A stretch of 40,237 nt of DNA, taken from Macrostomum lignano. Lineage: Eukaryota. The position numbers were made by a program, and so were the translations under genes. The DNA lies in NCBI GenBank assembly GCA_002269645.1, contig NIVC01004628.1, positions 1-40,237 on the forward strand, in the 5' to 3' direction. The notes under the pieces were generated by a model, which saw nothing but the letters and a program-made list of their open reading frames with translations, did no database searches and was not told the DNA's origin. This document shows positions 3,241 to 34,260 of this stretch, one piece after another. Within the stretch, counting starts at the first letter, position 1, and every line of letters begins with the position of its first letter.

Positions 3241-3284
3241 ATTTTTTTATTAAAAGCTTTTATTAAAGGACTAAATAAAAACAC

Positions 3285-6351: not shown

Positions 6352-6397
6352 TTAGGGTTAGGGTTAGGGTTAGGGTTAGGGTTAGGGTTAAGGTTAG
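6352..6397 (+). repeat. Interstitial telomere-type repeat (TTAGGG)6 plus degenerate units
   Basis: Six perfect TTAGGG at 6352-6387 then TTAAGG TTAG; a decayed paralogue at ~5920-5970. Confidence 0.9.
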
Positions 6398-7379
6398 AAA
6401 GTAGACAGATTTTTTAAGATTTCAAGGCTTATGGGAGCATTGCTGAGATGTCAAGGGGGGAGTTGATATGTTATGGCTTGTGGGGGGGGGGATTGCTGAC
6501 ATGTCAAGGCTTACAAGGGTACTGGTAGCGTACTGAAGCATACTGGTAGAAGTAGCTCTGAAAGAAGGCAAGTATGGTTGAATTTCAATGTCTGTTATAA
6601 AATTCTGCACAAACATGTTTTATTGGTACATAAGCCTGGAATTAAAATGAGAATTCGATTCCTAGCCCCCCTCCCTAAGAATTTTTTTTCACTTTAAAGG
6701 ATTCGTCCCTTGCTTATTGGCCACCCCGAAGGGGGGCGCTAGATTGCTAGTCCTATATACTAAAAATGAGTTGTCTGTATGTGGGTAGGTAGGTAGGTAG
6801 GTATGCGATAGATTTCAGAAAAAATGGCTCAACCGATTTTCTTCAAACTTGCACCATTCGATCAGAAATTTTCCTGGGACGGTACATGCATCTTGGCTAA
6901 GAAATTTCTCAATGTTAAAGGGATTAAATATTCGAAAAACATGCTTTTTTGCGAAGGTCAAGCAAACTTTTCGACTTGAAATGCATTGTAAGAATGCTAG
7001 ATAAAAACCTGACTGACTGAATTTCAATTCTGATAAAGATTGCATCACAACAAATTGAAAACAGTGCCGAAGAAATGCACACACAACTTGATTGAAATTG
7101 CGTAACAATATTGCTAACTTAAATTGACACTGATACTGGCTGACTGAGAAATTGATTATGTCATAATTTGCTATATTTGCTATATTGCTATTTGCTATAT
7201 TTGCTATAAGAATTTAATTATAAGGGCCACAATTCATGTTCTCCAATTGACAAGAGATAGCATAGATGCGAACAGACTGGACTGCTAATGTAGGGACCTG
7301 GGTTCGAGTCTTAGTAGTGCAAAAAGATTCTTTTATTAAAACACCTTAAAAACACGAAATGCTGAACACAAAAAAGCAT

Positions 7380-8975: not shown

Positions 8976-8978
8976 AAA

Positions 8979-10400: not shown

Positions 10401-11616
10401 GCTTGCTATTTAAGGATAGATTACTGCTATCAGGGGGATGCTTGCTATTGGAAGGATGCTTGCTATCTGGGGGGGGGGATTCTTGCTATCTGGGGATGCT
10501 TGCATGCTGTCTGGGGATGCTTGATATTAGGGAGGCAAGAGGCTTGCTCTTGGGGGGGGTACTTGCTATCTTGGGGGGAGGGGTTGCCATCTGGATGATG
10601 CTTGCTATCTGGAAGATGCTTTTTGCTATTGTATTTGGGGGGAGCTTGCTATCTGGGGGATGCTTGCTATCTGGGGGGATGCTTGCTATGGGGGAGATGC
10701 TTGCATGCTGTCTGGGGATGCTTGCTGTCTTGGGATGTTTTCTTTTTAGAGGAAATGTCTGCTGTTTTTTCGTTGTCTATTTGTTACTTGTAAAGAACAA
10801 AGATTCTATCCAGATGTCCCCCATCGGGGGGCGAAGATTGCTAGTATCCACTATAAATACGAGTATTTGTTTATACCAAGATTTACTATCAATGCAAACT
10901 GACCGCACAGGCAGAAATCGTAAAACAATATTAACGGTATAGTCGCTATTTTAGTCAGCACAGCTTTATACCGACGCAAAAGTGTTAATTGTAAATTGGA
11001 AAAATAAAACTCGAGTGGGCTTACAGCAAGATGCCTCTGTTTTAGTCCAGAAGATCTGTACTGGTGGAGTTTCCTAGTCTAATTTACATTGCGGCCAGCA
11101 GTTCAAGCTCGGCAAGGATGGGGATCGAGGGGCAGCCGGGGGGGGGGGAAGGAAGTTTGGCAGACTCTACCGAGTACAATTGTACGAATTGGGATAGATG
11201 GAGCACGAGTACTTGAGAAAGAGACGATTGGGAAAGGAGGGCAGACAAGGCCACAGCCTATACTGTATGTGGCATGCAGTTCATCCGTGTACAAGCGTAG
11301 CCTAAAATGAATCTACATCCATTAAGTGCACACGCTCTGCTGCTTTGCCTCTAAAAGCAGATCAGGCATGGTACGAGTAACAGTACTGAAAAATAATATC
11401 TGATTCTGGTAGCTTGCACGGCATTTCCTGTCTTTTAGAATCGCACAGCACTGCACATACCGAATAGGACAGCAATTTAGAAAAAAAAATTACTATATTA
11501 CGCTCGCATAAACTATCAAGAAATGCCCGCTTCTAGAAGCAAAATAGGAACGAATTCGTCTCCCTCCAGCCGATTCTTCTATTCGAAGAATTGTCAGGTC
11601 GCCTCTGTTTTTCAAC

Positions 11617-11811
11617 ATGGCCATTTTAAAAGATTCGGTAAACTTAATTTTTGTCACGCTTTTTAGCATAGCAAATTTGACCAGTGGTCAAACAGTCAGT
11701 AGTGACAGCAGCGCAAACTCCTCGGCACTTTTAATCACCTGTTATAGCTGTCAGAATTGTCCAACTGTTAATCATAATTCGACACCACAGGCTACAGGAC
11801 GATACTGCGTT
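11617..11811 (+). CDS. Ly6/uPAR (three-finger, LU-domain) protein, exon 1
   Basis: ATG, hydrophobic signal peptide (LIFVTLFSIANLTSG), CYSCQNC motif, ends phase 0 at a GTAAGT donor (11812). Confidence 0.8.
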
Positions 11812-12014
11812 GTAAGTTTATTTGGAAAACTGCATGAGTTTAAAGAAGTTGAAACTAGTTTTTTATGTATTGTGTTGCTTCATTGGCTGAATAATAAATT
11901 ACATATAGGAATTGGTACAGGCTTTAATTTGAATGTCTTCTCGAGTTTGTGTCAAACAGAATAAATAACTCCTTTGTGTCGACGCCAATTGTGACGAATC
12001 TGAATTAGAAACCC

Positions 12015-12790
12015 AATATGACGTCTAAAACACCCAATGTGACGCTCTCAAGATCGACACCCAATGTAATGTCTCTCCAGTCACCCAATGTGACGTCTCT
12101 CTAGTCACCCAATGTGACATCTCTCAAGACACCCAATGTGACGTCTCTCAAGACACCCAATGTGACGTCTCTCCAGTCACCCAATATGACGTCTCTCCAG
12201 TCACCCAATGTAATGTCTCTCCAGTCACCCAATGTGACGTCTCTCTAGTCACCCAATGTGACATCTCTCAAGACACCCAATGTGACGTCTCTCAAGACAC
12301 CCAATGTGACGTCTCTCCAGTCACCCAATATGACGTCTCTCCAGTCACCCAATGTGACGTCTCTCTAGTCACCCAATGTGACATCTCTCAAGACACCCAA
12401 TGTGACGTCTCTCCAGTCACCCAATGTGACGTCTCTCAAGACACCCAATGTGACTACTCTCAAGACACCCAATATGACGTCTCTCCAGTCACCCAATGTG
12501 ACGTCTCTCAAGACACCCAATGTGACTACTCTCAAGACACCCAATATGACGTCTCTCCAGTCACCCAATGTGACGTCTCTCAAGACACCCAATATGACGT
12601 CTCTCCAGTCACCCAATGTGACGTCTCTCCAGTCACCCAATGTTACGTCTCTCAAGACACCCAATGTGACGTCTCTCAAGACACCCAATGTGACGTCTCT
12701 CAGACACCCTATGTGACGTCGCTCCAGTCATCTAATTGGACGTCTCTCTAATCACAGTGAGCCATCTCTCGAGTAAACCCAATGTAACGT
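12015..12790. repeat. Intronic 24-bp minisatellite CACCCAATGTGACGTCTCTC(AAGA/CAGT)
   Basis: About 30 units; variant order repeats with a 6-unit (144 bp) period in the 5' half. Confidence 0.95.
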
Positions 12791-12971
12791 CTCTTAAGGC
12801 ACCCATATCATGACTTTTAAGTCCCAACAGGTGTAAGGTATCCTACAGGTATCCTATAAGATGAATTCATTTATTTTAGATACATTTATGTCCATGTAGT
12901 AAGAAATGTACTCACTTATCCTACTTATGTACTTAAACCTACATGCAATTAAATTCTCAACACAAATCCAG

Positions 12972-13199
12972 AAACGAGTGTCCAAAACCGGGGACATCAT
13001 CAGACTGGCTATCAACGGTGTCTGCTATGAGAACGACTCCACATTCTGCTGTCAGGAGAGTCTCTGCAACAGTTCGTCGCCCAAAGTCTTGTCTAGTTAC
13101 CATGGTAACTGTTCCTGCAAGCTGAGGCGCTTCTTGTGGAATTTTTCCGGAATTTTGCCGCTTTCGTTGGTGTATTTTATTAAGCAGTGTGAACTCTAA
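12972..13199 (+). CDS. Ly6/uPAR protein, exon 2 (joined product ~140 aa, probably GPI-anchored)
   Basis: Acceptor ...AAATCCAG at 12971, phase 0 in frame with exon 1; CCQESLCN LU-domain hallmark; 8 domain cysteines in the joined protein; hydrophobic C-terminus. Confidence 0.8.
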   Translation, partial: KRVSKTGDIIRLAINGVCYENDSTFCCQESLCNSSSPKVLSSYHGNCSCKLRRFLWNFSGILPLSLVYFIKQCEL

Positions 13200-14709
13200 T
13201 TTTAATTCATTTTTAAGTTTGTAAGTGTTTCAGTTGACACGTTTTTTTTAAATTTCATTCAATGCTCAGCTAATGTTTATCTGCTGCAGAAAAAACTTCC
13301 AAATGCAATATACGAGCTCCGTACTACCTGCACTTTCGTAATCCTATGGGAAATTACTTTGGTACTTTGGCTGCAGGGGAGCGCCGGGAATTGGGTTGAG
13401 TTTGTCCCGACTAAATGTGGGGCCAGTAGCTGGTGAAGTGTGCTCCGCATTCTCAACACCAGAGAGGCAGAATGGGCCAGCATTTCTCACTGCGGATTTT
13501 CCCCTGAATAAGGTACAGGTAGAGCGATGACTTGAGAGAGGGGCATGGTGGTGACCGCCCTTAGATGTCTTGCGTTTGAGATCACCAAGCAGGGCCCTAC
13601 GAGACTATGGAGAGGGACTGGGGATAGACGTGCAGGACTGGCCGGAACTCCCAGTCGGGGGAAGGGGCTCTGGGAAGTCTACCCGAATATACGCGACATG
13701 CAGCAGATTAATCTGCCTGATTTATAATCTCCCGCTGCGTTTTAATAGATGTATATTGGCCTCTCCGAATAGCTGCATAAGAATGCTATTTATATATTTC
13801 GTCGTACTATTCTGAGCAGATCTCCGAAGAATAATAACTTTGTCCTGAAATTGATGTACAGTATTATGTATAGACCTCTCTCAATACAAATAATTTAATT
13901 TGTACTTCTACATTCAAATATCTTTACCAATACACCATTTAGTAGGTTTAATCTGTAGTACGTTAAAGTACTGCAGTGTGTAATAGATCATGTGAAATTT
14001 TAATTTCAATTGTGTTAGCCATGCATATGTGCATGCATCTTTGTGATTGACATGGAATTTCTCGATTATTAATCTTCAATGTACACGTTATAAAGTAGCT
14101 ATATAACTGTAGTTTAAGCACACGGATGCATCTGTCACAATCCACGAATTTGTACAGCATCCAAAGCATGTATAGGAGCTATTATTCATGAGGAGATACA
14201 CGAATGCCTGCAGAGAGATAGGACATAGACAAAAGCGAAACTTAAGGAAACGAGAGAGAGGCTTTGGCAAACAGTCAATGGGAGAATTGAATTGATAGTA
14301 GTACATCAATGCGTTGATAAGTGGTTTGTGTGTGCATTCTCTCAATGCACAACACATAGCTCGTACAGTGTACATTACAAGGGAATGTGATATATTATTG
14401 CACCTTTCTTATACAGAGAGTAGCTCTATTGGTATTCTTAAAAGCTCTTCGTTCAGAAAATTAGTGTTCTATATTATACATGATCGTGTACAAGTGGTCG
14501 TAAAGTAAAATAAAAAATTGTTATTTAATGATAAAGTTATATATAAGTTATAAATTATAATTGCTTACGATATTATCCGTAATCAGTGATATCGGTATCA
14601 TAATCAGTAACAAGGTACTGAACATAAAAAGAGCAGAAAATGAAAGATAAAAAGAATACGTAGTATGTGTATCGCAAACGTGAGGATGTACGAGCTTCAT
14701 TATTATTAT

Positions 14710-15551
14710 TATAAGACTTAGAAATCTGAACGGAATTTAAGAGTTCGCTAGCAGAAAGCTAAAAACCAAAAATAGCAACAGCAGAAAGTGCGAGCAAGCG
14801 AAAAGGAGAATGATTAGACAAAATCCGCCCCCAGAGATCAACTATTCATTTCAGCGCAGGCCCGGTTCGGCATGACAGCAGCTGTGCCGACGTGGAGCTG
14901 CCTGACACCGGATCCGCAGAGGCGCTGACGTGGAACCGCCTGAGACCGGACCCGCAGCTGTGCTGACGTGGAGCTCCCGGAATCAACCCGGCCTACCCCG
15001 ACCTGCAGCTGCCTGCATCGACCCAACCCAGCAGAAACTGGAGCCGCCCGGACCCGATCGGGAACGAGATCGAGAGGAGGCCGAGTCCGCACAAGAAGGC
15101 GGGATCGATGAAAGAAAAGGGGTTGGCGTGCCTGCCAACCAACTAGTTTAATGACAATAACGGTACTAGACTCGAGGCTGCGACCTCACTCACCCCAAAT
15201 TCCCATGCGTACTGTTGCTATGGTATTTTCTTCCCCTCGGATCGAGGGTTTTAAAGACATTATATATATCGGAGCGGAGCGCGGAAAAAGAATCGCCGCG
15301 CGAGTCAGTTAGAGATTCTATTTGAATTCCGTTACGTTAAACACATTAGAAAACTCATAGTGTTTGTGTTATTTCTTGAGTAGAATCTAAGATAAGGATC
15401 CCGAGAGATCATCACAGCCAGCCAGTATACTGAGTGTCGATAGTCGTTAGGAGTTATAGCCTTCAAGACATCCAGACTGCAATAATCCGCTAGACCAATT
15501 ATACGAAAAATATAAGTAAAGACAAGAGACATCAAAACTTGAAGCGCTATA
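14710..15551 (+). repeat. 5' LTR (842 bp)
   Basis: Direct repeat of 26478-27320; begins TATAAG, ends GCGCTATA; TATATATA box at ~15261; U3 direct repeats containing TGACGT/CGACGT at ~14877-14978. Confidence 0.95.
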
Positions 15552-15566: not shown

Positions 15567-16761
15567 TACGAGTCATCTATCGAGCAGTCTACACTTTTCA
15601 ACCTGACGACATCGACCAGTAATGGCTGAGTAATTTCCGACGGTGGAGGAAGGAACGCGGAAGGCCAGGATGAGTGCTGTCATACAATTGTTTCTCTACT
15701 AAGTAAACTATACATCGTGTCGTAAGAGGACATGTGCGTTTCTCATTGAAAAAGCTCAAAAAAATTCGATAAAATTCTAAAAACAAACAAAAAAGTAGAA
15801 TAGTTATGTACAAAGTTACGGTATGATTTTCCTTAGAAGAGAAATATTTAGCGGCTGGTGAAGCAAATCACCAAGGCCGCACATCAATAGCGAGGGGCTA
15901 CCAGGAAGTTGTTTTAATAGGACCATGGTCGAATTATCATGAAAGGTGTACTCATTTAAAGAATTCAGGCAGCGCTGACCAGCATTATCACATATTAAAG
16001 CTTATGCTCTAAAGGAGCGTTTGCAGGAGCCGGCCGACTCATCACAGGTAAAGGACCTGTCAAGTGAATTGCAGCATTAAAAGTACACCGTATAGGGCTT
16101 TTCATTGTTATAGCGCGCTTCAATAGGCTCAGTAGGATAGTAGACCTTCTGAGGAGAGTTATACTCTTGGCACTAAGGACTGCGCGGACACAGAGGGGGG
16201 AAGAACTCACTTAGGCACTATGCATTGCGTCTATCTGACTTAGCTCCCCAGCAAACGTGACAGCCCGCCCATAGCGCTGATGATCTACTACACAGCGTGG
16301 CAGGGTAAGTATTTGTGCCCCCAACCTAGGTAGCCAGTCCATGAGACAACCTCGAGGCATTTCTTAAGGCAGATTGAAATGCATAGCCCAACTAGCCAAT
16401 AAGGCGGAAAGCGGAAAAGCAAAATGCTTGGTCGCTAAGAGTGCATGTGTATAAAATGCTGCAACCATATTATTTAGCCTCGCGCATATCTACGACAAGC
16501 GAGACAAAAATGCACTCATTTATTTGCAAAAAGCAAGAAAATTTACATATTGACTGCACCACCTGGCCGGAAACGTATCCGACACCTCTACCCCTTTTCT
16601 CATATTTGAATTCCAATTAAAACTTTGTGAGATCTTAGATAGATCAGAGCACACACTGACAAACTACTTTGTTGAAGTCAAGCTGATTAAATACGCATCA
16701 TTTACATTCATATCATTTGCGGCCAACTCCGCAAAGAACTAATAGACCGGAATATCAGCAT

Positions 16762-19700
16762 ATGAATAACGGAGATCTAAACCAAGACATTCAAACAGGT
16801 ACTAACAGAACTCCAGAACCCGGAGACGCCGATCAGCAACAACTGTCACACGACCAGTTAGATCAGCCAGAAGACCACAACGACGAGTGGGAAGACAACA
16901 ACGAGCATTCATCAGACTCGGACAACGAGGACAACACAATGGAAGATCTCCAGAACCAAGTCCGAGAACTACAGCAGCGTCTCGCCATGGTACATGGCAG
17001 GGACCTACCAGCCATTGTCCAGGCTCTCAAGTTATCGGCAGGAGACTACGAGATGGGACAGCCATTTGTCAAATGGCTGACTGAATTCGAGCTCCAGACA
17101 GCGACATATGGTCTAACGGACGAAGAGAAGTGCCGACTACTACCACTTATGTTGCGCCCTAACGCACGTAATCAATACGCAGGACTCCCACAAGCCGTCC
17201 GAGAGGATTACGGACGGGTGCGAACGCAACTCCGAGAGCTGTATGACACTAGAGCGATGGACCGACCCACGGCAGTACTCCAACTTTCCATGAGGAGGAT
17301 GCATCCAGGAGAGGATGTTAACAAGTTCATCGCCGACATCACACAACTAGTCGAGAACTCAGTGTTCCAAGAACCAGCGCCGGAGGGTGAGAATGAGAAC
17401 GACAGAGGCGCAAGAATCAACCGCAACAAACGCATAGTCCAGGACCACATTATGCTGCACGTGCAACAGAATGCCACACCGGCATTGCGACTATATCTAG
17501 CCAGAGGACGTTACCAGACAGTCCCGGAGATGGTGCGCGAAGCACTTCAATGGCAAGCATTGCGAGAGTTGGAACAGGACTCCAACGACGTACGCAAGCT
17601 GACAGCCATGGTAGCACAGATGGAGACTACAATCAGGCAAGCGGACCGGCGCACCCAAGATCGAGCTCAACAGCCACAGAAGGAAACCGCAACCAAGTAC
17701 CCAGACGGCAATCCGAGGCTGACATGCCAACTCTGTGACAAGATAGGCCACACAGCCAACAAGTGCTACCAAAGGAACGGGAACCTCGGTAAGAATACCG
17801 GGGGCCAAGTGCAGTCACAGGGCAGACAAGATCGAGGTAACATTAAGTGCAACAAATGCGGAAAGAGAGGCCACTTTGCAAAGGAGTGCAGAGGCCAGCG
17901 ATATTGCAAGAACTGTAACATGCACAACCATTGGACAACGGAATGCGGCCGACAACGCCAGGGTGATCAAGGACGGCATCAACAGCAATGGCAGCAGCCA
18001 AAGCGGATCGCTGAAGTCACGGTCCAGGACCCCAGTCCGCAGCCAGCCCAACTGGCGAGTGAGTCTAGCCAGACAGCACATATCTTGGCAGTCAGCACGT
18101 CGGAAGAGACAACGCCGACAAGGACAAGAAGCGACGTCATACAAGCAAGACGACAGAACAGGAAGAACAAGACGGCGACAATCGCCCTAGTTCAGACCGC
18201 TCCACAGCTCGAAGGACGAAAGCGAGAGCACAGGGCTAGAAAGGCTAGTGATGGCTGGAAGGCACCAGCCGGACCGATATGCGCACTCCTGCTAAAAATA
18301 CTACTCTTCGCATTGCTCTGCACCACGGCGGAGACGATAAACCCAAGACACCAGAACTGGGTGGACACACCGATGTACTGTCCGGAGCCCTCCAGGCCAC
18401 AGATCTTCAAGCTGCCACCGGACATCGAGTGCAAGATGCCTAGCAGCATACAGCAGCACCGACAGCCGATCAACCTGACAATCTTTAGACCAAACCAGGT
18501 CACTCACCGATCAACACTCAAGATCTGTTACCGAGAAACGTATGTCTTCACCAGCGTAGCACTAAAAACGATTGCCGCTAAAGTGATAAGACCAGAAATG
18601 ACTGTTACGGTGCAGAAACATCTAGTTTCAGAGGAAGATTGTGAGTCCTGGGAGGAAGGTTACCGAACTCCAGATGGCATCCTTGAAGAAGATGGGAAAG
18701 CCCCGAACAAAGCTGAACGCTTTACTACTCACATCTGGACAACAGAGGAATTCGACCCAACGGCTAGTACCCAAACTAGATATACGAAATCCGCGTCCAC
18801 GCTGATAACGAAAATTCCGTTCTTCGTGGAGAATAAGAAAATGTCATCGCTATATATCCCACTAGGACATTGCAATTACACCATAGGAAAATGTCTTCAC
18901 GAGTCCACTCTACAGGCCGAGAAGGATGCACCGTTGGAGAGACAAGTACCCAACAAACTATGGGAAGCTCTGAGATACTACGACACACAATTCAAGGTCG
19001 CTGGAGAACGCCAGTACAGATATGCCTGGACACCCAGCGCCGCAATTGACTGCCCGTACCAGGAAGACAGGCGAATTGAAGGAACCATACACACAGGATG
19101 GTTCATGTCCAAGGACGCTACCTACGCTTTGACTTTTAAACACCCACCACACTCAATGGAGCTGAAATGCGGAGGAACGACAACTAAACTATTCAGGTCA
19201 GAACAAGGAAAGTTGGTTAAACTAGAAGGATCCGAAGCAGAATTCTTATCGATAGTACAAGGTAATTTTAATAACTCGAGCACAGCAAAGAGGGCAAAGA
19301 GAGACGTGGTATCACAGGAAACTCTAGCAGTGAAATTACAGAGTGTTGAACTTACAATGGAAAATAGAATTGGTGATCTGACTCGTCATGTAATCCTTCA
19401 GCAATGCCGACTCCAACAGACCATTTTTAGATACATTAAAGACTTTATAAGGATGCAACCAACACTAGCGGTGAGGACACTGTTCAAAGACGAGCACCTC
19501 AAGGCCAGAACGATAGCTCAGCATGTTGTCATCTTCAAATGCATCCCAGTGACCGACTTCGAATTCCATCAACCATACTGGAATCAAAGCCGATGTTTCT
19601 CCAAACCTCCGCTGAAGTACAAAGTAGCGGAGACCAACCGTACAGGATTTTTGGACGTAAGAACCATGGAAATTGAGACGGAACACCCCACTTTTCAGGA

Positions 19701-20343
19701 TTGTTCGAATCGAACTGGATACCTGTTACCCAAAGAGGACAAAGTGTACAAGGTCGACTCAAATTTCACCAGCTTCGAACTTATACAGGTAAAGAAATTG
19801 AAGAACGAAGATTGGGGAATAGAGGCTATGAAATTACCTAATATCAAACGGATTATCTTTACACCAGAAACAGATATTAAAATAGAAGAAATCCGAAGGC
19901 CAATTACAGTGCACGATCTGTACACGCAGATGAAGGACCAGAGAGAATTTCTGAGAACGGTATTTAAACTACCAAAGCAGAAGACTTCACAGACGCTCGA
20001 CCTCCCACCATTGGAAGCAAACATAGCCCTCAAAACTTATGACTTCGCATCTTGGATGCCGTGGATAGGCATAAAACTCAATATTTTCAACATAGCCGTT
20101 GGAGCTGCCGCTCTCTGGGTATACTTCTGCATCATACTCAAAACCATAATAGCTTGTCACAGGCTCTATCGGAAAAAGTACGAGCGACCAGGAATTCGGG
20201 CAATTCAAAGACGGATAAAGGCGACGCGAGAACAACACGAATTGTTAGTACAGCCAAGCACGGACACTAACTACAGACACACGGGCCCACGCCGCCCAGC
20301 ACAGAGGCACCAGCCACAAATAAGGAACAGCATCAACCGATGA
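16762..20343 (+). CDS. gag-env: Gag-Env fusion polyprotein (1193 aa from first ATG): capsid, three CCHC knuckles, internal signal peptide, class III gB-like glycoprotein, TM, tail
   Basis: Gypsy-type capsid region; CQLCDKIGHTANKC, CNKCGKRGHFAKEC, CKNCNMHNHWTTEC; hydrophobic ICALLLKILLFALLCTTA (18277-18330); 12 ectodomain Cys; at least 7 N-X-S/T sequons; furin site RAKR (19291-19302); TM 20083-20139. No stop or frameshift between gag and env. The track extends the ORF to a TTG at 16717. Confidence 0.92.
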   Translation: MNNGDLNQDIQTGTNRTPEPGDADQQQLSHDQLDQPEDHNDEWEDNNEHSSDSDNEDNTMEDLQNQVRELQQRLAMVHGRDLPAIVQALKLSAGDYEMGQPFVKWLTEFELQTATYGLTDEEKCRLLPLMLRPNARNQYAGLPQAVREDYGRVRTQLRELYDTRAMDRPTAVLQLSMRRMHPGEDVNKFIADITQLVENSVFQEPAPEGENENDRGARINRNKRIVQDHIMLHVQQNATPALRLYLARGRYQTVPEMVREALQWQALRELEQDSNDVRKLTAMVAQMETTIRQADRRTQDRAQQPQKETATKYPDGNPRLTCQLCDKIGHTANKCYQRNGNLGKNTGGQVQSQGRQDRGNIKCNKCGKRGHFAKECRGQRYCKNCNMHNHWTTECGRQRQGDQGRHQQQWQQPKRIAEVTVQDPSPQPAQLASESSQTAHILAVSTSEETTPTRTRSDVIQARRQNRKNKTATIALVQTAPQLEGRKREHRARKASDGWKAPAGPICALLLKILLFALLCTTAETINPRHQNWVDTPMYCPEPSRPQIFKLPPDIECKMPSSIQQHRQPINLTIFRPNQVTHRSTLKICYRETYVFTSVALKTIAAKVIRPEMTVTVQKHLVSEEDCESWEEGYRTPDGILEEDGKAPNKAERFTTHIWTTEEFDPTASTQTRYTKSASTLITKIPFFVENKKMSSLYIPLGHCNYTIGKCLHESTLQAEKDAPLERQVPNKLWEALRYYDTQFKVAGERQYRYAWTPSAAIDCPYQEDRRIEGTIHTGWFMSKDATYALTFKHPPHSMELKCGGTTTKLFRSEQGKLVKLEGSEAEFLSIVQGNFNNSSTAKRAKRDVVSQETLAVKLQSVELTMENRIGDLTRHVILQQCRLQQTIFRYIKDFIRMQPTLAVRTLFKDEHLKARTIAQHVVIFKCIPVTDFEFHQPYWNQSRCFSKPPLKYKVAETNRTGFLDVRTMEIETEHPTFQDCSNRTGYLLPKEDKVYKVDSNFTSFELIQVKKLKNEDWGIEAMKLPNIKRIIFTPETDIKIEEIRRPITVHDLYTQMKDQREFLRTVFKLPKQKTSQTLDLPPLEANIALKTYDFASWMPWIGIKLNIFNIAVGAAALWVYFCIILKTIIACHRLYRKKYERPGIRAIQRRIKATREQHELLVQPSTDTNYRHTGPRRPAQRHQPQIRNSINR

Positions 20344-23300
20344 TTCCGTCTGCTCCACTGGCTTCATCAATTTATCCGACGATCAGCTCATGGCCACCGC
20401 CGATAGTGGCAGCAATTACGAACTGCCAGAAGTACACGGTGACGCGACTGAAGATAGGCACGCGAGTCTGCAGAGCACTGATAGACAGCGGAGCAGAGAG
20501 GTCGCTGATAGACGAAGCGACGGCGCGCCGATACAGTGACAGCTTCGAGAAGCCGACGACAGAACTGCAAGGAGTACACGGAGGAAAACTCACGCAATCC
20601 GGGATGATCACGTTACCAGTCGAAGCAGGAGACGCAATCGCCAACGTTAAGTTTCACGTCATTCCTAATCTGAGTTCTGGGAGATATCATGCACTCTTGG
20701 GAATTGATTACTTAAGTCAGTTGCAGAAGGGTATGTCTATTAATTACCAACAGCAACAGATGCAGTTAAATGGCAGATCGTATGAAATCATGACAGTCGC
20801 CGCCCAAGAAGCCACAAATAAGATCAGACTAGTCTCCGTGGTAAACCTGAATCCATGGGAAACAGCTCAAATTACAGCCAGAACCGACTCAAAGGAGGAA
20901 CTGCCTGACACGGTACTTTTCGAGCCAGATAGGCGCATCACCGAGAAGAAGGCGATAGGAATGACTCAGGAGATAGTACATCCGGACGAGAAGGGAGAAG
21001 TACAGGTTCTTATATCCAACGAATCAGCCAGACCGATCACTCTGTACCCGGATACAGCCATAGGTTCATATGAGACAGAGATAGAGACATATGAAATAGC
21101 CGCGAATCAGGAACAGGCACCGGCAATGTCAGAGACAGAATTTAGAGATGCGATTAATCTGCAGGGAGCCGAGATAACAGAGGAGCAGAAAGAACAACTA
21201 AGAGAAATCCTCTGGGAGAACAAGGAAGCATTTTGTCTCTCAGATGACGAGATAGGATTTACAGAAGTAGCGAAACACGAACTCCACATAAAACCGAATG
21301 TGGAGGTGAAGCTGAACAAGAGATATCCTATTCCACACCAGCTGACAGGAGAACTGAAGAAGGTGATAGACAGAATGGAGATGCAAGGGATTCTCATGAA
21401 AGCACCGACACCGTATATTTCACCAATTCTCCTAGTCAAGAAAAAATCGGAGTCACCGGAAGCTAAACCAGTGTATCGCCTGTGTGTGGACTTCAGGGAC
21501 TTAAACCGATTGTTGGTCCCCGAGAGGCAGTGTATGCCCAGGATTCCAGATCTGCTGGCCAAACTCAAAGGATCAAAGTACTTCACGACTCTAGACATGG
21601 CCCAGGCATTCTTTCAAGTGGCCCTACACGAGGACAGTAGAAAATACTGCGGGATTTCTACACCGGACGGAGAAACTCTAGTCTTCTTAAGGGCACCGAT
21701 GGGATTACAGTCGAGCCCAGCCGCCCTGTCTAGAGCGGCTAGCATCATCCTCAAAGACATCGAAAGAGTCTCGACATATGTGGACGATTTGCTAGTATTC
21801 ACGGAAAATTTCGAACACCACCTAAAGACACTCAAAAGTACTCTGGAAGCCTTGAAAAAGCACGGATTAAAGCTGAAACTCCAGAAATGTCGTTTTGCGC
21901 AACCCAGCATTACCTTCCTGGGACACAAGATTGACCAGAACGGCATCCAGATAGATCGTACCTTAGTGGATAAAGTACAAAAGGTATCCAAGCCGGACAA
22001 TGTGACTCAGTTAAGGGCATTCCTCGGACTATGCAATTTTTTTAGGAAGCATGTCCCACAATACGCCAAGAAAGTACAACCGCTAACGGATATGCTCAAA
22101 GGGGCACCGACCTCAAAAGGACAAGCAACGAAGACCAACCTAAAGTGGACCGAGGAAGCGAACTACACTTTCGAGGCTATGAAGAAATGGATAGCCGAGG
22201 ACCTCAGGTTAGCACACCCGGATTTCAGTAAGCAGTTCATCGTTTCGAGTGACGCCTCAACTAAGGGAATAGGAGCGATGCTTTCGCAGAAAGATGAGAT
22301 GGGACGGGAGAGACCGATAGCATTCACGAGTAGACAACTCAGAGACGCCGAAACGAGATACGGAATCACTCATCTCGAACTTTTAGCAGTCTACCATGCA
22401 TTCAGAAACTTTGAACAGTTCTTATACGCCGCTCCCATACCTACACTACTGAGAGTAGATCATGCTCCACTCAGAGGCTTACTCACAGGCAGAATACTGC
22501 AGAACAACCAAATTTTGCGATGGTTACTATACTTACAGCAGTTTCAAATACAGATCGAATATGTACCAGGAGCATCAGTCACACATGCGGTACCGGACGC
22601 ACTCTCAAGGTTATACGACGAGAAACCAATGGACCAAGTCAATTATGTCACAATATCACATCCAATCCCACACTTACAAGCACTCAAGGACGCCCAGGCG
22701 GAAGACCCGTTCTGCCAACAAATCCGAGCGATGTGGAACGGAGAATCTGCAGTGGAATCACTGGCCCCGAAGTACAGACGCCACATCGATAGACACATGG
22801 CGGACTACGCGGAGATTGGAGGAGTTTTACACAGAACAGCGGATCAGACACAACAGATCATCCTACCATTTCAGTATCGTGAGACCATTTGCCATTCACT
22901 ACACGCATTGCCATTAGCGGCACATTTGGGATTTGAGAAAACCCTAGAGAGAATCCGCAGACACTACTTCTGGATTACCATGATATCCGACATCCGAGGA
23001 TTCTGCAATAACTGCATAGAGTGCGCCAGGAACAAATCAGGAAAAACCCATAAGGGACTGATTCAGTTTTCGGAGATCCCAATGCGACCAATGGACAAAT
23101 TGTCAGTCGACATAGTGGGTCCAATGGTGCCCACTAAAGTGAGAAATGAAACAGTAACACACATTCTTACAATTCTTTGTTGCTTTTCGAAATTCGCATT
23201 CGCCATTCCGATCCCAGATCTTACAGCTGAAACGACGGCAGAGACACTATTCACAGTGTTCTGTACTTTTGGGATCCCGATTGAGATGTCCACGGACAAT

Positions 23301-24098
23301 GGAAAGAACTTCACAGCGACTCTACTAGCCGAAGCCTTAGAGATATTGGGGATCAAACATATTTTGACATCTCCATATAATCCTCGAGCGAATCATGTGG
23401 AACGGTTACACTCCACACTGCACAACATGTTACGCCACTACACAGCCGAGAATCCAGACCAGTGGCATAAGTACCTGCAGGCGACAATGTTTGCATATAA
23501 CACGGCAAAGCAAGCATCATCGACCTACTCGCCATTCGAGTTAGTTTTCGCCCGACGACCTCTGATGCCTACTCAACTTACTACTCAGTTGAACTTGGTA
23601 AAGTACATGGATGAACCATCATTTGCAGCTAGAATGAAAGAAGCTGTAACACTAGCCAGAGAGATAGCGAGGCACCACCTACAGGTCGCACAAGAAAAGA
23701 ATACCGGAAAAGCAAATGAAAACCGCAAACCGACTACATTGGAAGTAGGGAGTAGAGTTATGTTGCAAATTCCTATGAGACAGGGAAAGCACCAAGCTAA
23801 ATTTACAGGACCCTATGAGATTGTGAAGAGGAGCAGTCAGACTTCAGTCACAATCCGGAAAATCGACGATCCAAATCAGGAGTCCTTTCAAGTGCACACC
23901 GACAGGCTGAAACCAATGGCCACATCAACACCACATGTGATGCTTCCTGACCTCAGACCGAGCGACCCACAGCGCCACCAGCGACAGCCAAGGCAGCGAT
24001 TCACAAAGGAAGTGAGCGTGCAGGCAGAAGAGCTGGACGCGCAGGCCGACACAGCTCGGAAGAAATACAATCTGAGGAGCAAAGTGAAACTTCCTTGA
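20340..24098 (+). CDS. pol: Pol polyprotein: protease, RT, RNase H, integrase (1252 aa)
   Basis: LIDSGAERSLI (PR); YRLCVDFRDLN, LDMAQAF, YVDD (RT); SDAS..ELLAV..VDH (RH); H-H-C-C zinc finger, VDIVGP, TDNG, VERL and FTGPY (IN). Confidence 0.98.
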   Translation: MIPSAPLASSIYPTISSWPPPIVAAITNCQKYTVTRLKIGTRVCRALIDSGAERSLIDEATARRYSDSFEKPTTELQGVHGGKLTQSGMITLPVEAGDAIANVKFHVIPNLSSGRYHALLGIDYLSQLQKGMSINYQQQQMQLNGRSYEIMTVAAQEATNKIRLVSVVNLNPWETAQITARTDSKEELPDTVLFEPDRRITEKKAIGMTQEIVHPDEKGEVQVLISNESARPITLYPDTAIGSYETEIETYEIAANQEQAPAMSETEFRDAINLQGAEITEEQKEQLREILWENKEAFCLSDDEIGFTEVAKHELHIKPNVEVKLNKRYPIPHQLTGELKKVIDRMEMQGILMKAPTPYISPILLVKKKSESPEAKPVYRLCVDFRDLNRLLVPERQCMPRIPDLLAKLKGSKYFTTLDMAQAFFQVALHEDSRKYCGISTPDGETLVFLRAPMGLQSSPAALSRAASIILKDIERVSTYVDDLLVFTENFEHHLKTLKSTLEALKKHGLKLKLQKCRFAQPSITFLGHKIDQNGIQIDRTLVDKVQKVSKPDNVTQLRAFLGLCNFFRKHVPQYAKKVQPLTDMLKGAPTSKGQATKTNLKWTEEANYTFEAMKKWIAEDLRLAHPDFSKQFIVSSDASTKGIGAMLSQKDEMGRERPIAFTSRQLRDAETRYGITHLELLAVYHAFRNFEQFLYAAPIPTLLRVDHAPLRGLLTGRILQNNQILRWLLYLQQFQIQIEYVPGASVTHAVPDALSRLYDEKPMDQVNYVTISHPIPHLQALKDAQAEDPFCQQIRAMWNGESAVESLAPKYRRHIDRHMADYAEIGGVLHRTADQTQQIILPFQYRETICHSLHALPLAAHLGFEKTLERIRRHYFWITMISDIRGFCNNCIECARNKSGKTHKGLIQFSEIPMRPMDKLSVDIVGPMVPTKVRNETVTHILTILCCFSKFAFAIPIPDLTAETTAETLFTVFCTFGIPIEMSTDNGKNFTATLLAEALEILGIKHILTSPYNPRANHVERLHSTLHNMLRHYTAENPDQWHKYLQATMFAYNTAKQASSTYSPFELVFARRPLMPTQLTTQLNLVKYMDEPSFAARMKEAVTLAREIARHHLQVAQEKNTGKANENRKPTTLEVGSRVMLQIPMRQGKHQAKFTGPYEIVKRSSQTSVTIRKIDDPNQESFQVHTDRLKPMATSTPHVMLPDLRPSDPQRHQRQPRQRFTKEVSVQAEELDAQADTARKKYNLRSKVKLP

Positions 24099-24267
24099 CA
24101 TTTGAAGTCAAGGGAGGGAGGAAGTAGACGGACAATTTTCATTTTAAACAATATTCATTCCTCTGTTGGTGTGCGCTCTGATATTTAGAATTATATATTT
24201 TGCACTACTCGTAAGCAGCCACTATTTAATCACTCACAAATATTCAACCCACCCTTCGGATGATCAG

Positions 24268-25029
24268 ATGTATTCGACGGAGCTAGACACAGTGGATGAT
24301 TGCACCATCGATGAGCCGCTCACGACCTACACATTAGTCAAGCCACTGTTTACATCGGCAGAACCAAGCAAGGCAGTCGGGAAGGAGATGAACATTAGGA
24401 ACAGCGCCGCCACTGAACAGCAACGGCGACATCTCCAAGTCCAATGGGCGATCAGAAGATCGAGAAACGGACTGCCGCAATGCCCAGCAACACTGAGGGA
24501 GAGCTACAAACGGGGAGAAAAAGACCTTTCATTCAATGAGTTCTACAACCTTATGGACAAACAGCCCATCCAAAGCAAGCCCAATCGGCATGGTGAGATG
24601 AAACTATTCAATATTCACCTGGACATGCTGGATGCGCCACGAATTCCAGCTAATGTAGTGACGCACTTGACAACGAAGCGCATCCTGGCTGACGACAATA
24701 ACCCAATATGGCTCCTCTCAGACTACAACATTCTACGTAACCGCACAACAATCTTCTTTCACTATGGGGAACAAGACGCGTTCACCTGCGTCATAATCAA
24801 GGTTCTTTGCCGTACTCTAGCCGTCAATCTGATTCACCCTTGGGGCCCGCAACCCAATGCGATATGCACCACGTTATTTAATTACTTGTCCCACGTGCTG
24901 GCCTATCATGGAATACAGAGTAATCGCCACGAAATGACAAAACTAGTAGTCCGAACGTATTCACCGGCGCTGCTCCAGTGGCCACAACTAAAGACGGCAT
25001 TGGAAGCCTCGCTAGCGCCTACTCTTTAG
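24268..25029 (+). CDS. ORF3, accessory protein of unknown function (253 aa from ATG), possibly degenerate RNase H-like fold
   Basis: Long non-repetitive ORF inside the element; ATG directly preceded by a candidate acceptor (...CCCTTCGGATGATCAG). Track start at TTG 24166. Confidence 0.7.
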   Translation: MYSTELDTVDDCTIDEPLTTYTLVKPLFTSAEPSKAVGKEMNIRNSAATEQQRRHLQVQWAIRRSRNGLPQCPATLRESYKRGEKDLSFNEFYNLMDKQPIQSKPNRHGEMKLFNIHLDMLDAPRIPANVVTHLTTKRILADDNNPIWLLSDYNILRNRTTIFFHYGEQDAFTCVIIKVLCRTLAVNLIHPWGPQPNAICTTLFNYLSHVLAYHGIQSNRHEMTKLVVRTYSPALLQWPQLKTALEASLAPTL

Positions 25030-25093: not shown

Positions 25094-25459
25094 ATGGTAG
25101 GACAGATGGGTCGTCACGACCGGAAGTCTTATCCTTGTGGCACTCTCACTCGAGGTGCAATCCTAAGGCAAGAACCAGTCTCACGGAAAGAACTTTGGGG
25201 AGCGTCTCGCTACCTGAAGATTCTGACCGGTGAACTAGGGGAAGCCAGCCCCGTCAATCAAAGCGAACCCAAACTTAGAATAACCAAGTACAAAGGCAAG
25301 GCACTACCAAATTCCATGATCCAGCACTCATTGTTTTATTGTACAAAAATAGTAACCAGCACCAATACTCACTCCTACACGTTAAGCACTGCACAACAGT
25401 CAATAGCAAAAAATTCAACAAGGGGGATAAGGATAGACAAGAAAAGCACACGATTATGA
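25094..25459 (+). CDS. Possible ORF4 (121 aa, basic, no recognised motif)
   Basis: ATG-initiated, 366 bp; no other support. Confidence 0.3.
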   Translation: MVGQMGRHDRKSYPCGTLTRGAILRQEPVSRKELWGASRYLKILTGELGEASPVNQSEPKLRITKYKGKALPNSMIQHSLFYCTKIVTSTNTHSYTLSTAQQSIAKNSTRGIRIDKKSTRL

Positions 25460-25477: not shown

Positions 25478-25735
25478 TCAAATTGTCACGACGGTGGACT
25501 CGGCTAGGGGGCTCCGACGCCGCCGGCAGCAGACGAGCAGCAGAACGAGGCCGAGGATCACGAAGACCAGGCCTCCGGCCCCCAGACCGCCAGAGAGTCC
25601 ACGAACGGTCAGGAGGCCGCTTTCAAGGGACGTCGTCCGAGCTATTTCCACGGCTAGGTGGGCCTCTAGGCGGCTGACTCGGGCCTCCAGATGAGACAGG
25701 AGCTCAATGAGCTGGGCAACCTCGTAGCGAGACAT
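25478..25735 (-). CDS. Antisense small single-pass membrane protein (85 aa)
   Basis: True ATG, high GC at third codon positions, heptad-like N-terminus, TM GLVFVILGLVLLLV, then CC-RRRR. Confidence 0.65.
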   Translation of the reverse strand: MSRYEVAQLIELLSHLEARVSRLEAHLAVEIARTTSLESGLLTVRGLSGGLGAGGLVFVILGLVLLLVCCRRRRSPLAESTVVTI

Positions 25736-26477: not shown

Positions 26478-27320
26478 TATAAGACTTAGAAATCTGAACG
26501 GAATTTAAGAGTTCGCTAGCAGAAAGCTAAAAACCAAAAATAGCAACAGCAGAAAGTGCGAGCAAGCGAAAAGGAGAATGATTAGACAAAATCCGCCCCC
26601 AGAGATCAACTATTCATTTCAGCGCAGGCCCGGTTCGGCATGACAGCAGCTGTGCCGACGTGGAGCTGCCTGACACCGGATCCGCAGAGGCGCTGACGTG
26701 GAACCGCCTGAGACCGGACCCGCAGCTGTGCTGACGTGGAGCTCCCGGAATCAACCCGGCCTACCCCGACCTGCAGCTGCCTGCATCGACCCAACCCAGC
26801 AGAAACTGGAGCCGCCCGGACCCGATCGGGAACGAGATCGAGAGGAGGCCGAGTCCGCACAAGAAGGCGGGATCGATGAAAGAAAAGGGGTTGGCGTGCC
26901 TGCCAACCAACTAGTTTAATGACAATAACGGTACTAGACTCGAGGCTGCGACCTCACTCACCCCAAATTCCCATGCGTACTGTTGCTATGGTATTTTCTT
27001 CCCCTCGGATCGAGGGTTTTAAAGACATTATATATATCGGAGCGGAGCGCGGAAAAAGAATCGCCGCGCGAGTCAGTTAGAGATTCTATTTGAATTCCGT
27101 TACGTTAAACACATTAGAAAACTCATAGTGTTTGTGTTATTTCTTGAGTAGAATCTAAGATAAGGATCCCGAGAGATCATCACAGCCAGCCAGTATACTG
27201 AGTGTCGATAGTCGTTAGGGAGTTATAGCCTTCAAGACATCTAGACTGCAATAATCCGCTAGACCAATTATACGAAAAATATAAGTAAAGACAAGAACCA
27301 TCAAAACTTGAAGCGCTATA
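26478..27320 (+). repeat. 3' LTR (843 bp)
   Basis: Differs from the 5' LTR by one G insertion and three substitutions in my manual comparison. Confidence 0.95.
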
Positions 27321-28949: not shown

Positions 28950-29644
28950 ATGCACAGCTGGTCGGTCAAGATGATTCGCAAAGATACCAAAATGCAAGTA
29001 AGCAACGACAGAATCTACATGGTTGGCAAGTTACGATACTTCTTACTGGTAAATTGCAGCAAGAAAGCCTATTGGAAGCTAAGCATCGCAGCGGGTCGTT
29101 TTGTACAAGCGAATTACAAGGCTTTACTTGCACTGCTTTCGTCGAAATCTGCTGGATCAAGAGGTCGAGATGATGCCACGGTTGACGGCTCGGCTCAGTT
29201 GCCTTTCTACATAACAGTCAATCGCACGGAAAACAAGAAAACTCGGATGAGCGTATCAGCCACCGTTGATGAGCGCAATTTGCTGTATTTATCCTCGGCG
29301 ACAGTCGATGACAAGCTAAGAATGCGCTTGAAAAACGGTCGCAGAGACTATCGAGTCTGCGTTCAAGGCTCCATCGGCCTTGTTGAAACTGAATCCAACC
29401 TTTCAATTGACACCGTTTCGTGCACCAATGCGACAGCTGACGCTCGCACCTGCGAGGCCAATCTCGCGAGTGTTATGCACACCGACTCAGCTGACCTACT
29501 GACGGCCGCTCCGACGCCGTCTGCGCCGCGTCGACGTCTGTTGTCTGATAACTACGATGCCGAGACAATGGGCCGCCTGTTTCGAGAACGATACACCACA
29601 CTGCGCGGGGAGTACTTTATTTTCTATTCTCACGGTGAATTAAT
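28950..29644 (+). CDS. TTLL10: TTLL10-like gene, first visible coding exon (5' boundary uncertain)
   Basis: Open frame ending at phase-2 donor AT|GTGAGC (29645); spliced junction YFIFYSHGELI|CRKMLNAMGF aligns without gaps to recalled TTLL10 FYIGGSNGASIISNYCKSKGW. Confidence 0.55.
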
Positions 29645-29750
29645 GTGAGCATGCTGTGCTGTATTTTTACTATAGTATACGGTCAAACCGCAGGTAAAAT
29701 TTCATTTGAAATCAATCGTACGAGAAAACTTTTAACTCCCTTAGTCATAT

Positions 29751-31047
29751 CTCCTCTCCCTCCTCTTTCTCCTCTCCTTCCTCTCCCTCCTCTCCCTCCT
29801 CTCCCTCCTCTCCTTCCTCTCCTTCCTCTCCTTCCTCTCCCTCCTCTCCCTTCTCTCCTTCCTCTTTCTCCTCTTTCTCCTATTCCTCCTCTCCTTCCTC
29901 TCCTTCCTCTCCTTCCTCTCCTTCCTCTCCTTCCTCTCCCTCCTCTCCCTCCTCTCCTTCCTCTCCCTCCTCTCCTTCCTCTCCTTCCTCTCCTTCCTCT
30001 CCTTCCTCTCCTTCCTCTCCTTCCTCTCCTTCCTCTCACTCCTCTCCTTCCTCTCCTTCCTCTTCCTCCTCTCCCTCCTCTTCCTCCTCTCCTTCCTCTC
30101 CCTCCTCTTCCTCCTCTCTTTCCTCTCCTTCCTCTGCCTCCTCTCCTTCCTCTCCTTCCTCTCCTTCCTCTCCTCCTCTCCCTCCTCTCCTTCCTCTCCT
30201 TCCTCTCCCTCCTCTCCCTCCTCTCCTTCCTCTCCTTCCTCTCCCTCCTCTCCCTCCTCTCCTTCCTCTCCTTCCTCTCCCTCCTCTTCCTCCTCTCCTT
30301 CCTCTGCCTCCTCTCCTTCCTCTCCTTCCTCTCCTTCCTCTCCTTCCTCTCCTTCCTCTCCCTCCTCTCCTTCCTCTCCTTCCTCTCCTTCCTCTCCTTC
30401 CTCTCCCTCCTCTCCTTCCTCTCCTTCCTCTCCCTCCTCTCCCTCCTCTTCCTCCTCTCCCTCCTCTCCCTCCTCTCCCTCCTCTTCCTCCTCTCCTCCT
30501 CTCCTTCCTCTCCTTCCTCTCCTTCCTCTCCTTCCTCTCCTTCCTCTCCTTCCTCTCCTTCCTCTCCTTCCTCTCCTTCCTCTCCCTCCTCTCCTTCCTC
30601 TCCTTCCTCTCCCTCCTCTCCCTCCTCTTTCTCCTCTCCTTCCTCTCCCTCCTCTCCCTCCTCTCCCTCCTCTCCTTCCTCTCCTTCCTCTCCTTCCTCT
30701 CCCTCCTCTCCCTTCTCTCCTTCCTCTTTCTCCTCTTTCTCCTATTCCTCCTCTCCTTCCTCTCCTTCCTCTCCCTCCTCTCCCTCCTCTCCTTCCTCTC
30801 CCTCCTCTCCTTCCTCTCCTTCCTCTCCTTCCTCTCCTTCCTCTCCTTCCTCTCCTTCCTCTCCTTCCTCTCACTCCTCTCCTTCCTCTCCTTCCTCTCC
30901 CTCCTCTCCTTCCTCTCCTTCCTCTCCTTCCTCTGCTTCCTCTCCTTCTTCTCACTCCTCTTCCTCCTCTCCCTCCTCTCCCTCCTCTCCCTCCTCTCCC
31001 TCCTCTCCCTCCTCTCCTTCCTCTTTCTCCTCCCCTCCTCTTCTTTC
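29751..31047. repeat. 1.3-kb almost pure polypyrimidine/polypurine tract, (CCTCTCCTT)n-type 9-mer, intronic
   Basis: Plus strand nearly all C/T with only isolated A or G interruptions. Confidence 0.97.
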
Positions 31048-33382: not shown

Positions 33383-34260
33383 GCCGAAACCCCGGCGGCA
33401 TGTTCCTCATGAAGCCCGGTCACGCCGACTGCGGTGAAGGCATCGCACTGCTCCGTTCGCCGTCGCTGGAAGCCGGCCGAAGCCAATCGCTGAACAGCCT
33501 GGCTGCAGTCCTGGAATCTAAGTTCTCTGGCTACGCACACCGCGATCTGATCATGCAGCGCTACGTGCATCCGCCGCTACTACTGGAAGGTCGGAAGTTC
33601 GACCTGCGAGTCTACCTGCTACTGGTGCCGAACCTGCGCAGCGGAATTCGCCGCGGCGTGCACGCCTTCTGCCACCCCGGCTACGTTCGACTGGCCTGCC
33701 GGTCTTACCGGCCTGACAGCGACGACCCGTTGCTGCACCTCACCAATCAGGCCGTGCAGCAGCGGGACCCGTCCTACGACGCTGTTAAGGAAGACACGGT
33801 GTGGACGCCCGACCAGCTCAACGACTACATCAACCAACGATTCAAGGCGCCCTGCACTGACTGGGTACGGCGTCAGCTGTATCCTCGAATCCGCGCGATC
33901 CTGGCTCACGTGGTCTCTCTGGCCAGCAGCTCGCTATGTGATCAGCCAATGTCATTTGAGCTGTTTGGCTGCGACTTCTTAATTGGAGCGGATTTCAACG
34001 TGTGGCTACTCGAGCTCAATTCGGACCCATCATTGAGCACGCACACATCCACATTGAGCAGGATTGTCACTCAGACGGTTGAGGAGAGCATCTGCCTGGC
34101 CGTTGAGGTGCTCCAACGGGCTGCGCGCGGCCAGTCAACTAAGGGACTTGTCGGCCAGCAGGACTTCTGTCGGATTTTTAGTCACACGAACGAGTCGGTA
34201 GCTCGCCGCGTGATGGCCAGAGCTGGGTTGCGGCAGCCGAAGCCTACGGGCGACTGTTGA
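33383..34260 (+). CDS. TTLL10: TTLL10-like terminal exon, TTL catalytic domain (tubulin polyglycylase family)
   Basis: KPGHADCGEGI, QRYVHPPLLLEGRKFDLRVY, HLTNQ, FELFGCDFLI, WLLELNSDP; HLTNQAVQ..DPSY..VKEDTVW..QLN.YI matches recalled TTLL10. Acceptor AAAATCCAG in phase 1. Confidence 0.9.

Follow-up and report, generated by a model that had tools for sequence, protein, structure and literature searches.

The stretch of DNA considered here (the window, 40,237 nucleotides from the flatworm Macrostomum lignano) holds a 12.6-kb gag-env-pol Ty3/gypsy LTR element. Its 5' LTR (14710..15551, plus strand) and its 3' LTR (26478..27320, plus strand, with a polypurine tract directly before it) show 4 differences in about 843 nt, and at 99.5% likeness the element appears to be young. 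The LTRs start and end with TATA and not with TG..CA (positions 14710 and 27320), the primer site begins 2 nt past the 5' LTR (15554), and no clear target-site duplication was seen for the window element. ORF1 (16762..20343, plus strand) consists of a gag part with a zinc knuckle, a signal-like hydrophobic stretch and then an env part (Monjiviricetes_fusion) with a TM segment. The env part reaches 33.7 bits against PF24664 (Monjiviricetes_fusion; cut-off 27), and its fold predicted from the single sequence has a pLDDT of 30.7, which is too low for fold comparison. ORF2 (20340..24098, plus strand) encodes protease, RT, RNase H and integrase in the Ty3/gypsy order. ORF1 and pol (ORF2) lie in different frames in the window copy, while many related loci are single frames of more than 2,400 codons, and the frame break may be a lesion or an assembly error. 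Tandem arrays with periods of 23, 24, 18 and 9 nt flank the element (window 1-13200 and 29600-31000), and a host ORF at 33400-34260 (plus strand) matches the tubulin-tyrosine ligase family (PF03133, E 9e-34).

Downstream of pol lies ORF3 (24268..25029, plus strand, 253 aa), which belongs to no Pfam family and is 38-81% conserved in relatives; a database search found no relatives of it outside the M. lignano genome. A sense intron-like GT..AG joint (15618..24268, plus strand) occurs in the contigs of two of four public runs, from two studies, and its acceptor falls exactly at the ORF3 ATG (24268). ORF3 is a sense accessory gene with a spliced RNA. ORF4 (25094-25459) was considered as a conserved gene and rejected, as no occurrence was seen beyond the subfamily of the window and a degraded version in locus L017. 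Most subfamilies have, adjoining the 3' LTR, a further conserved sense ORF of 105-113 aa, ORF5 (32 matches, no Pfam family; for example L017 1890-2231 on the minus strand, L007 2024-2347 and L015 2057-2374); in the subfamily of the window itself it was not detected. GAG-ENV-POL elements with an HSV/gB-type env are known in Platyhelminthes according to the available part of PMC13524379, and therefore the element type is not new. The window's element resembles these errantiviruses in its gag-env-pol order, its putatively class III-type env and its flatworm host; one M. lignano element listed in that part of the paper has another primer site than the window's and LTRs of another length.

Between ORF3 and the 3' LTR, in a slot of its own without overlap, sits an antisense accessory ORF (25478..25735, minus strand, ATG to TGA), which its sequence and homologues suggest to be an 85-aa single-pass membrane protein. 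The features for which the initial annotation had singled it out, namely an ATG start, a heptad helix, a Gly hinge, one TM segment, CC and RRRR, were all found. The ORF is a GC-rich island, its GC content being 0.64 and that of its flanks 0.46 and 0.43. The strong GC3 bias that had also been pointed out holds in comparison with gag-env, pol and ORF3 (0.72 vs. 0.51–0.57), but it is weak evidence alone because GC1 is equally high (GC1/GC2/GC3 = 0.74/0.47/0.72) and GC3 in divergent homologues is only 0.53-0.61. In dinucleotide shuffles of the 2.4-kb 3' region, an antisense ORF of 60-140 aa with a TM segment and a polybasic tail appeared in 2 of 1000 cases, and in none of the 1000 when CC was also required. 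Block shuffles that keep the local composition gave an antisense ORF with TM and polybasic tail in 4 of 500 cases, and one with CC in 1 of 500. The antisense ORF is more than a chance occurrence.

The decisive evidence for an antisense gene is codon-level conservation across divergent subfamilies. When the M. lignano genome was searched with the antisense protein, 16 matches were obtained among 23 candidates, 4 of them at 99-100% and 12 at 33-43% identity. Every one of the 16 retains a frame of 79-86 aa that starts with ATG (one extends further upstream), and in each case the ORF3, pol or ORF5 next to it is encoded on the other strand. The antisense frame is free of stops in all nine distinct copies, and each other frame is stopped in at least eight of the nine. 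The values of pS/pN for the antisense frame were 0.44/0.09, 0.33/0.05, 0.61/0.19, 0.59/0.22 and 0.66/0.42, with Fisher p from 1e-10 to 9e-4 in five of six pairs; the sixth pair is near-identical (0.03/0.01, p 0.3). Between subfamilies, pN/pS is about 0.15-0.4. The sole long indel of the ORF measures 7 codons, that is, one heptad. These patterns indicate purifying selection on the antisense frame as a protein, and the ORF is very probably a genuine protein gene.

A shadow ORF that is never translated, and whose apparent selection stems from an RNA element or from one of the sense frames, would agree with the loss of the antisense frame in several copies and with the unstranded nature of the RNA contigs. 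It is nevertheless highly improbable. The sense frame sharing the wobble positions is interrupted in 9/9 copies (8/8 in a second count), the antisense ORF's start and stop codons are kept at 33-43% identity, and changes at codon positions 1/2/3 (e.g., 8/7/29 and 8/3/21) show a third-position excess in the antisense frame. Close pairs have 0-1 gaps inside the ORF, as opposed to mostly 10-21 in the 250-nt flanks (one upstream flank has 1). The codon-level conservation among copies thus bears out the earlier proposal of a real, selected antisense accessory membrane gene of an LTR element, and the objection raised along with it, that the frame would be disrupted in relatives and that hydrophobic peptides arise readily by chance, failed for most relatives and in the shuffles.

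The gene is not carried by every copy. Among 18 further loci, picked by a neighbouring ORF, the homologue is intact in 5, truncated at the N-terminus in 1, broken up or incomplete in 5 and missing in 7. The gene is dispensable in cis, as it is absent from L017, deleted in L018, found in two pieces at 5 loci and absent from the largest env-bearing clade. In L017 (G000:C1674), the pol of which is 98% identical to that of the window, the 3' segment has been replaced. The LTR of this locus is only 86% alike and its 3' accessory segment is different, a mosaic that points to module exchange by recombination.

The antisense protein can be divided into three parts. A heptad helix (residues 3-48; 25592..25729, minus strand) is predicted, from an AlphaFold2 model and a three-copy model, to form a parallel trimeric coiled coil. 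It is followed by a Gly-rich hinge and TM segment ending in CC (residues 50-70; 25526..25588, minus strand), which coincides with the best 21-residue hydropathy window (KD 2.64), and by a short basic tail (residues 71-85; 25481..25525, minus strand). The AlphaFold2 model, built on 8 sequences and with a mean pLDDT of 62, has a helix at 3-48, a Gly hinge at 49-53 and a TM helix at 54-74. Within the helix lies an RhxxhE trimerization motif, as defined in the available part of PMC5940361 (residues 19-24; 25664..25681, minus strand). This motif is present in 10/10 distinct homologues, and its frequency by chance is 2-10% per shuffled ectodomain. The 7-codon insertion of some subfamilies adds one extra heptad, often with a second RhxxhE motif. 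Homologues keep the start MS, the heptad core and the pattern GL..L...L.G..GGG, and their ectodomains measure 49-55 residues and their tails 9-15.

The three-copy model is an in-register parallel coil over residues 6-52 with an R19-E24' contact, in agreement with the R(g)-E(e') pairing expected of the motif in a heptad a/d core; runs share at least 88% of contacts, and the pLDDT is at least 77. Its score is 0.65 and that of the best control 0.00. The calibration of this score used two copies, unlike the three copies that were the sole stoichiometry modelled, and a pass may reflect likeness to solved trimer coils. The score mark was reached by 21/30 solved homo-pairs and 0/23 single chains from microbes, and by 17/29 solved homo-pairs (animals 7/16) and 0/30 single chains from eukaryotes. 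Judged by these models, the antisense protein probably forms a three-stranded rod.

The CC (residues 69-70) and RRRR (residues 71-74) were read directly in the window protein. As hallmarks, they stood for the window and less well for the family: CC is found in 7/10 distinct homologues, with one Cys in the other 3/10, and RRRR is limited to the window's subfamily, while homologues keep a basic patch. What is kept in 10/10 homologues is a Cys where the TM segment ends (1-3 cysteines in all), and all five rows of subfamilies A-D have 3-4 K/R per 15 residues after the TM segment. A YxxL/V motif is present in 9/10 homologues; the window's own subfamily keeps the Leu, without the Tyr. The net charge is +3 after the TM segment and 0 to +1 before it. 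The MGxxxS/T myristoylation motif occurs in 0/10 homologues, and the ectodomains hold no Cys in 10/10 aligned homologues and, hence, no cystine loop. No signal peptide was found in the antisense protein and no N-glycosylation sequon in the coil. The hydrophobic moment (0.28-0.49 across homologues) is modest and uneven, and no consistent lipid-binding helix emerges.

Class IA viroporins have a small, single-pass, basic-tailed outline. The antisense protein shares this outline, and its conserved glycines (G46/G49/G50/G55) might allow the Gly-rich TM segment to oligomerize. The resulting ion channel would help budding or shield Env along the secretory path. However, a trimer with an all-hydrophobic TM segment offers no obvious pore, and conservation is centred on the coil and not on polar TM residues, which makes a channel quite improbable.

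The expression evidence is indirect. A protein that is 99% identical is annotated in M. lignano as BOX15_Mlig017149g9. According to the available part of PMC5730564, this annotation used stranded assemblies, removed weaker antisense transcripts and then applied TransDecoder; the CDS on the minus strand is therefore a hint of minus-strand RNA, no more, as ORF calling was perhaps open to both strands. In the contigs of 4 public runs, every one of the 30 bins is covered; these contigs carry no strand, start or level. Among the public sequence records holding the stretch (20/24 rows), none is recorded as RNA. A candidate antisense poly(A) signal is predicted at 25335..25340 (minus strand), 138 nt past the stop codon. 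In eight of the nine A-D copies, a minus-strand AATAAA lies 85-303 nt past the stop, and the ninth has ATTAAA at 115; the shuffle odds of such a word are 0.03-0.27 per copy, and only one of four further homologues beyond subfamilies A-D has it. A distance of 743 nt separates the antisense ATG from the 3' LTR. Weak TATA-like words 80-115 nt upstream of it were spotted by eye, and a strict TATAWA within 300 nt upstream is absent in 9/9 A-D copies. In the window, ATGs at about -190 and -290 of the antisense start lie in the path of an LTR-started RNA. This upstream layout would fit an internal promoter as well as the start in the 3' LTR that the initial annotation had proposed.

The distribution of the gene was followed on an integrase tree of 29 rows, from which one short row had been dropped. 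The tree contains three env-bearing clades: that of the window (100/100), a second one called E/F/G (100/99) and a clade with RING-like ORFs (99/98). One filter for TM/Cys/basic ORFs was applied to the 4 kb after integrase, and four fetched loci without an integrase match were left out of the clade count. An antisense TM ORF was found in the window and in 4/9 loci of its own clade, as well as in 4/6 E/F/G loci. The same 4 kb gave none in the 11 loci of the RING clade, in 2 other loci and in 17 env-less Mag-type loci, where most of the screened 4 kb is flanking DNA. The filter never picked out such an ORF on the sense strand. The antisense TM ORF was found only beside env. The largest env-bearing clade has two sense Cys-rich RING-like ORFs after pol (L032 2887-4150; L033 3845-5206; L078; L086; L089), with a Sina_RING score of 28.3 bits, just under the cut-off; they are possible element-encoded E3 ligases.

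In the second env-bearing clade, E/F/G, an antisense TM/Cys-rich ORF occupies the same place (L034 3638-3892, minus strand; L035 3282-3551, plus strand; L073 4948-5151, plus strand; L091). No significant similarity was found between these proteins and that of the window. They have 67-92 aa (one has 116), an N-part of 24-31 aa, 5-12 Cys and a tail of 22-41 aa, and their C-termini are of the S/T-x-V type, which is the PDZ-binding type, in 4/5 rows. Their frame is open in 8/9 E matches and 15/20 F matches. For the clade F antisense ORF, pS is 0.29-0.79 vs. a pN of 0.05-0.23 in an alignment from which row L050 was left out (wrong frame). Selection is less cleanly assigned here because the wobble-sharing sense frame is stop-free in 6/7 copies, without a shared start. 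The window's clade and E/F/G are not resolved as sisters, so that one ancient slot with turnover and two origins are both possible. Locus L075 holds, downstream of a clade-G-like integrase, a deoxynucleoside kinase ORF (4061-4741, minus strand; PF01712, E 2.5e-21), which has 45 genome matches, three of them lying 3-5.5 kb downstream of env matches.

Database searches beyond this genome gave hardly any relatives of the antisense protein. Of 8000 scored candidates, an 8-member profile picked out the M. lignano protein alone, and a search of 1.84 billion representatives gave the M. lignano protein and two heptad-repeat proteins matched on repeats only. The search with the clade-F protein found nothing, and exact look-ups succeeded for 1/7 and 0/10. 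A single, weak lead in the ESM Atlas (0.76) was dropped. The best hit of a PDB profile search had E 0.036, which is not significant, and the hits were mostly trimer coils; Pfam returned only DUF7139, below the cut-off. The identifier Mlig017149 was found neither in full texts nor in the supplements of PMC12801592, PMC12896417 and PMC5816591. The words antisense, ORF and transmembrane are absent from the available part of PMC12801592, a recent paper on M. lignano LTR elements, and 'antisense', 'accessory' and 'small ORF' are not mentioned in that of PMC13524379. A search confined to the literature, mostly non-subscription, turned up no animal LTR retrotransposon described as having an antisense membrane ORF. 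What may be new is the accessory layout, an antisense membrane gene, for which we could not find a description in an animal retrotransposon.

Related arrangements are known. Plant Retand, Grande and RIRE2 elements belong to a Ty3/gypsy lineage and also carry a conserved antisense ORF downstream of pol and ahead of the 3' LTR; unlike the animal membrane protein of the window, their products are, in the available part of PMC11963269, soluble and probably DNA-binding TRP28 proteins. Bdelloid elements have TM ORF3s in the sense direction (available part of PMC5408684). Like HTLV-1 HBZ, the window gene lies on the minus strand close to the 3' end. The HBZ product, however, is a nuclear factor, whereas the window protein has a TM segment. 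The minus-strand protein ASP of HIV-1 is a Cys-rich membrane protein. Its gene overlaps env, in contrast to the window ORF, which has its own non-overlapping slot.

The initial annotation had compared the ORF with FAST fusogens and had pointed to a similar small ORF in Drosophila mdg1-group elements. Such a precedent exists in the MDG1-group sORF2 of insects, but its arrangement is different. In the available part of 10.1101/2025.03.14.642691, these FAST-like proteins have 60-110 aa, one TM segment, a juxtamembrane polybasic patch and, in most, a Tyr just after the TM segment, and 105/105 candidates are forward. The antisense protein shares with FAST/sORF2 proteins a length within 60-210 aa, one TM segment and at least 3 K/R in 15 juxtamembrane residues, and like sORF2, it is a small accessory product of a Metaviridae element. 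The sORF2 proteins, as that part of the preprint presents them, are encoded forward in env-less elements, are mostly myristoylated and have an ectodomain of about 30 aa; the window protein is antisense, lies beside env, is unmyristoylated and has a trimer coil of 49-55 aa with a tail of 9-15 aa. With reovirus p10 FAST, in the available part of PMC12945298, it shares a TM segment with glycines, membrane-proximal cysteines and a polybasic motif; it differs in having no cystine loop or hydrophobic patch, a variable CC and a very short endodomain. Pfam, profile and PDB searches found no sequence similarity to FAST proteins. FAST identity as first put forward is not supported. Going by sequence, the antisense protein does not appear to be a FAST/sORF2 member and would work at most partly alike, because myristoylation, the cystine loop, the proportions, the orientation and the env-less context all fail.

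A looser kinship in function can still be envisaged, in which an acylated surface trimer bridges somatic cells to germ-line or stem cells as a fusogen or tether and opens a particle-free route besides Env. The size, the single TM segment, the 3-4 K/R in 15 residues, the juxtamembrane Cys and the TM glycines make up the generic FAST layout. Moreover, two Drosophila sORF2 are without a myristoylation motif and some lepidopteran sORF2 lie downstream of pol (available part of 10.1101/2025.03.14.642691), and the E/F/G family, with its ectodomain of 24-31 aa, Cys cluster and tail of 22-41 aa, fits FAST proportions better. Besides the features already named, a tail too short for an endodomain helix, the lack of a consistent lipid-binding helix and the env that the element already has render this role doubtful. 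A bolder variant is that flatworm enveloped Ty3/gypsy elements filled the antisense slot twice and that the variant with the coil acts as a trimeric fusogen or tether, minimal and class I-like but of a non-FAST kind, which needs no Env to join host cells to stem or germ cells; it must be regarded as improbable.

The function that fits best depends on the side of the membrane on which the coil lies. The antisense protein would insert N-out/C-in, because the charge (+3 vs. 0 to +1), the Cys and the YxxL make sense only in the cytosol. The reverse orientation would make it a tail-anchored organelle protein, with a cytosolic trimeric coil on the ER, mitochondria or peroxisomes that serves as a scaffold for capsid docking, organelle shape, or anti-apoptotic or innate signalling. 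The lack of a signal peptide and of a sequon in the coil agrees with this, as does a TM segment ending 9-15 residues from the C-terminus, and TM hydrophobicity and tail charge govern sorting between ER, mitochondria and peroxisomes (available part of PMC5450235). In that orientation, however, the YxxL/V (9/10) and Cys (10/10) would be lumenal, without a known use there, and the longer tails of the E/F/G analogues with their PDZ-type ends point to C-in. A tail-anchored protein is thus rather unlikely.

The best reading, to which we assign a probability of roughly one in three, is that of a trimeric membrane adaptor modulating Env or a host surface protein, the partner and the effect being what we infer. 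The ORF would serve an enveloped Ty3/gypsy element as an accessory gene with a minus-strand mRNA of its own, so that the antisense gene could be on while the sense genome is off. On the outer face, the 45-residue parallel trimeric coiled coil would form a rod of roughly 7 nm, as modelled; the juxtamembrane cysteines may be S-acylated, and the basic/YxxL tail would cycle the protein between surface and endosome. In the tails of viral envelope proteins, a YxxL close to the membrane is what usually signals to AP-2. A rod devoid of a fusion motif on one face, paired with a sorting signal on the opposite face, reads as an adaptor that re-routes Env or a host surface protein. In a manner resembling Vpu or Nef, the rod would bind the trimeric Env of the element, a host receptor or a restriction factor, and the tail would re-route the bound partner, thereby tuning fusion or blocking re-entry. 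Antisense expression would uncouple the protein from the sense promoter, which would suit the exclusion of re-entry or the control of a fusogenic Env.

This adaptor reading is favoured by selection on the frame, the RhxxhE motif in 10/10 homologues, the trimer model, the C-in cues, the restriction to env-bearing clades and the annotated CDS. Against it stand the missing YxxL Tyr in the window's subfamily, the dispensability of the gene in cis and the tail of 9-15 residues, which has tail-anchor geometry and would put the coil in the cytosol. Among the roles put forward in the initial annotation, the second one, a superinfection or restriction modulator, comes closest to the adaptor reading, by inference only.

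With a spliced sense accessory RNA and an antisense membrane gene under selection, the element brings a retrovirus-like complexity to an invertebrate Ty3/gypsy lineage, and its host is a transgenic, RNAi-tractable regeneration model. Screens limited to forward, myristoylated ORFs would miss this antisense TM class. The gene offers a test case for two questions: whether every small TM accessory protein of an LTR element is a FAST-like fusogen or some regulate Env or host proteins instead, and whether an element uses its antisense genes during its silent phase. If the fusogen or tether variant were true, an element that is transcriptionally quiet could, without Env, join its host cell to stem or germ cells.
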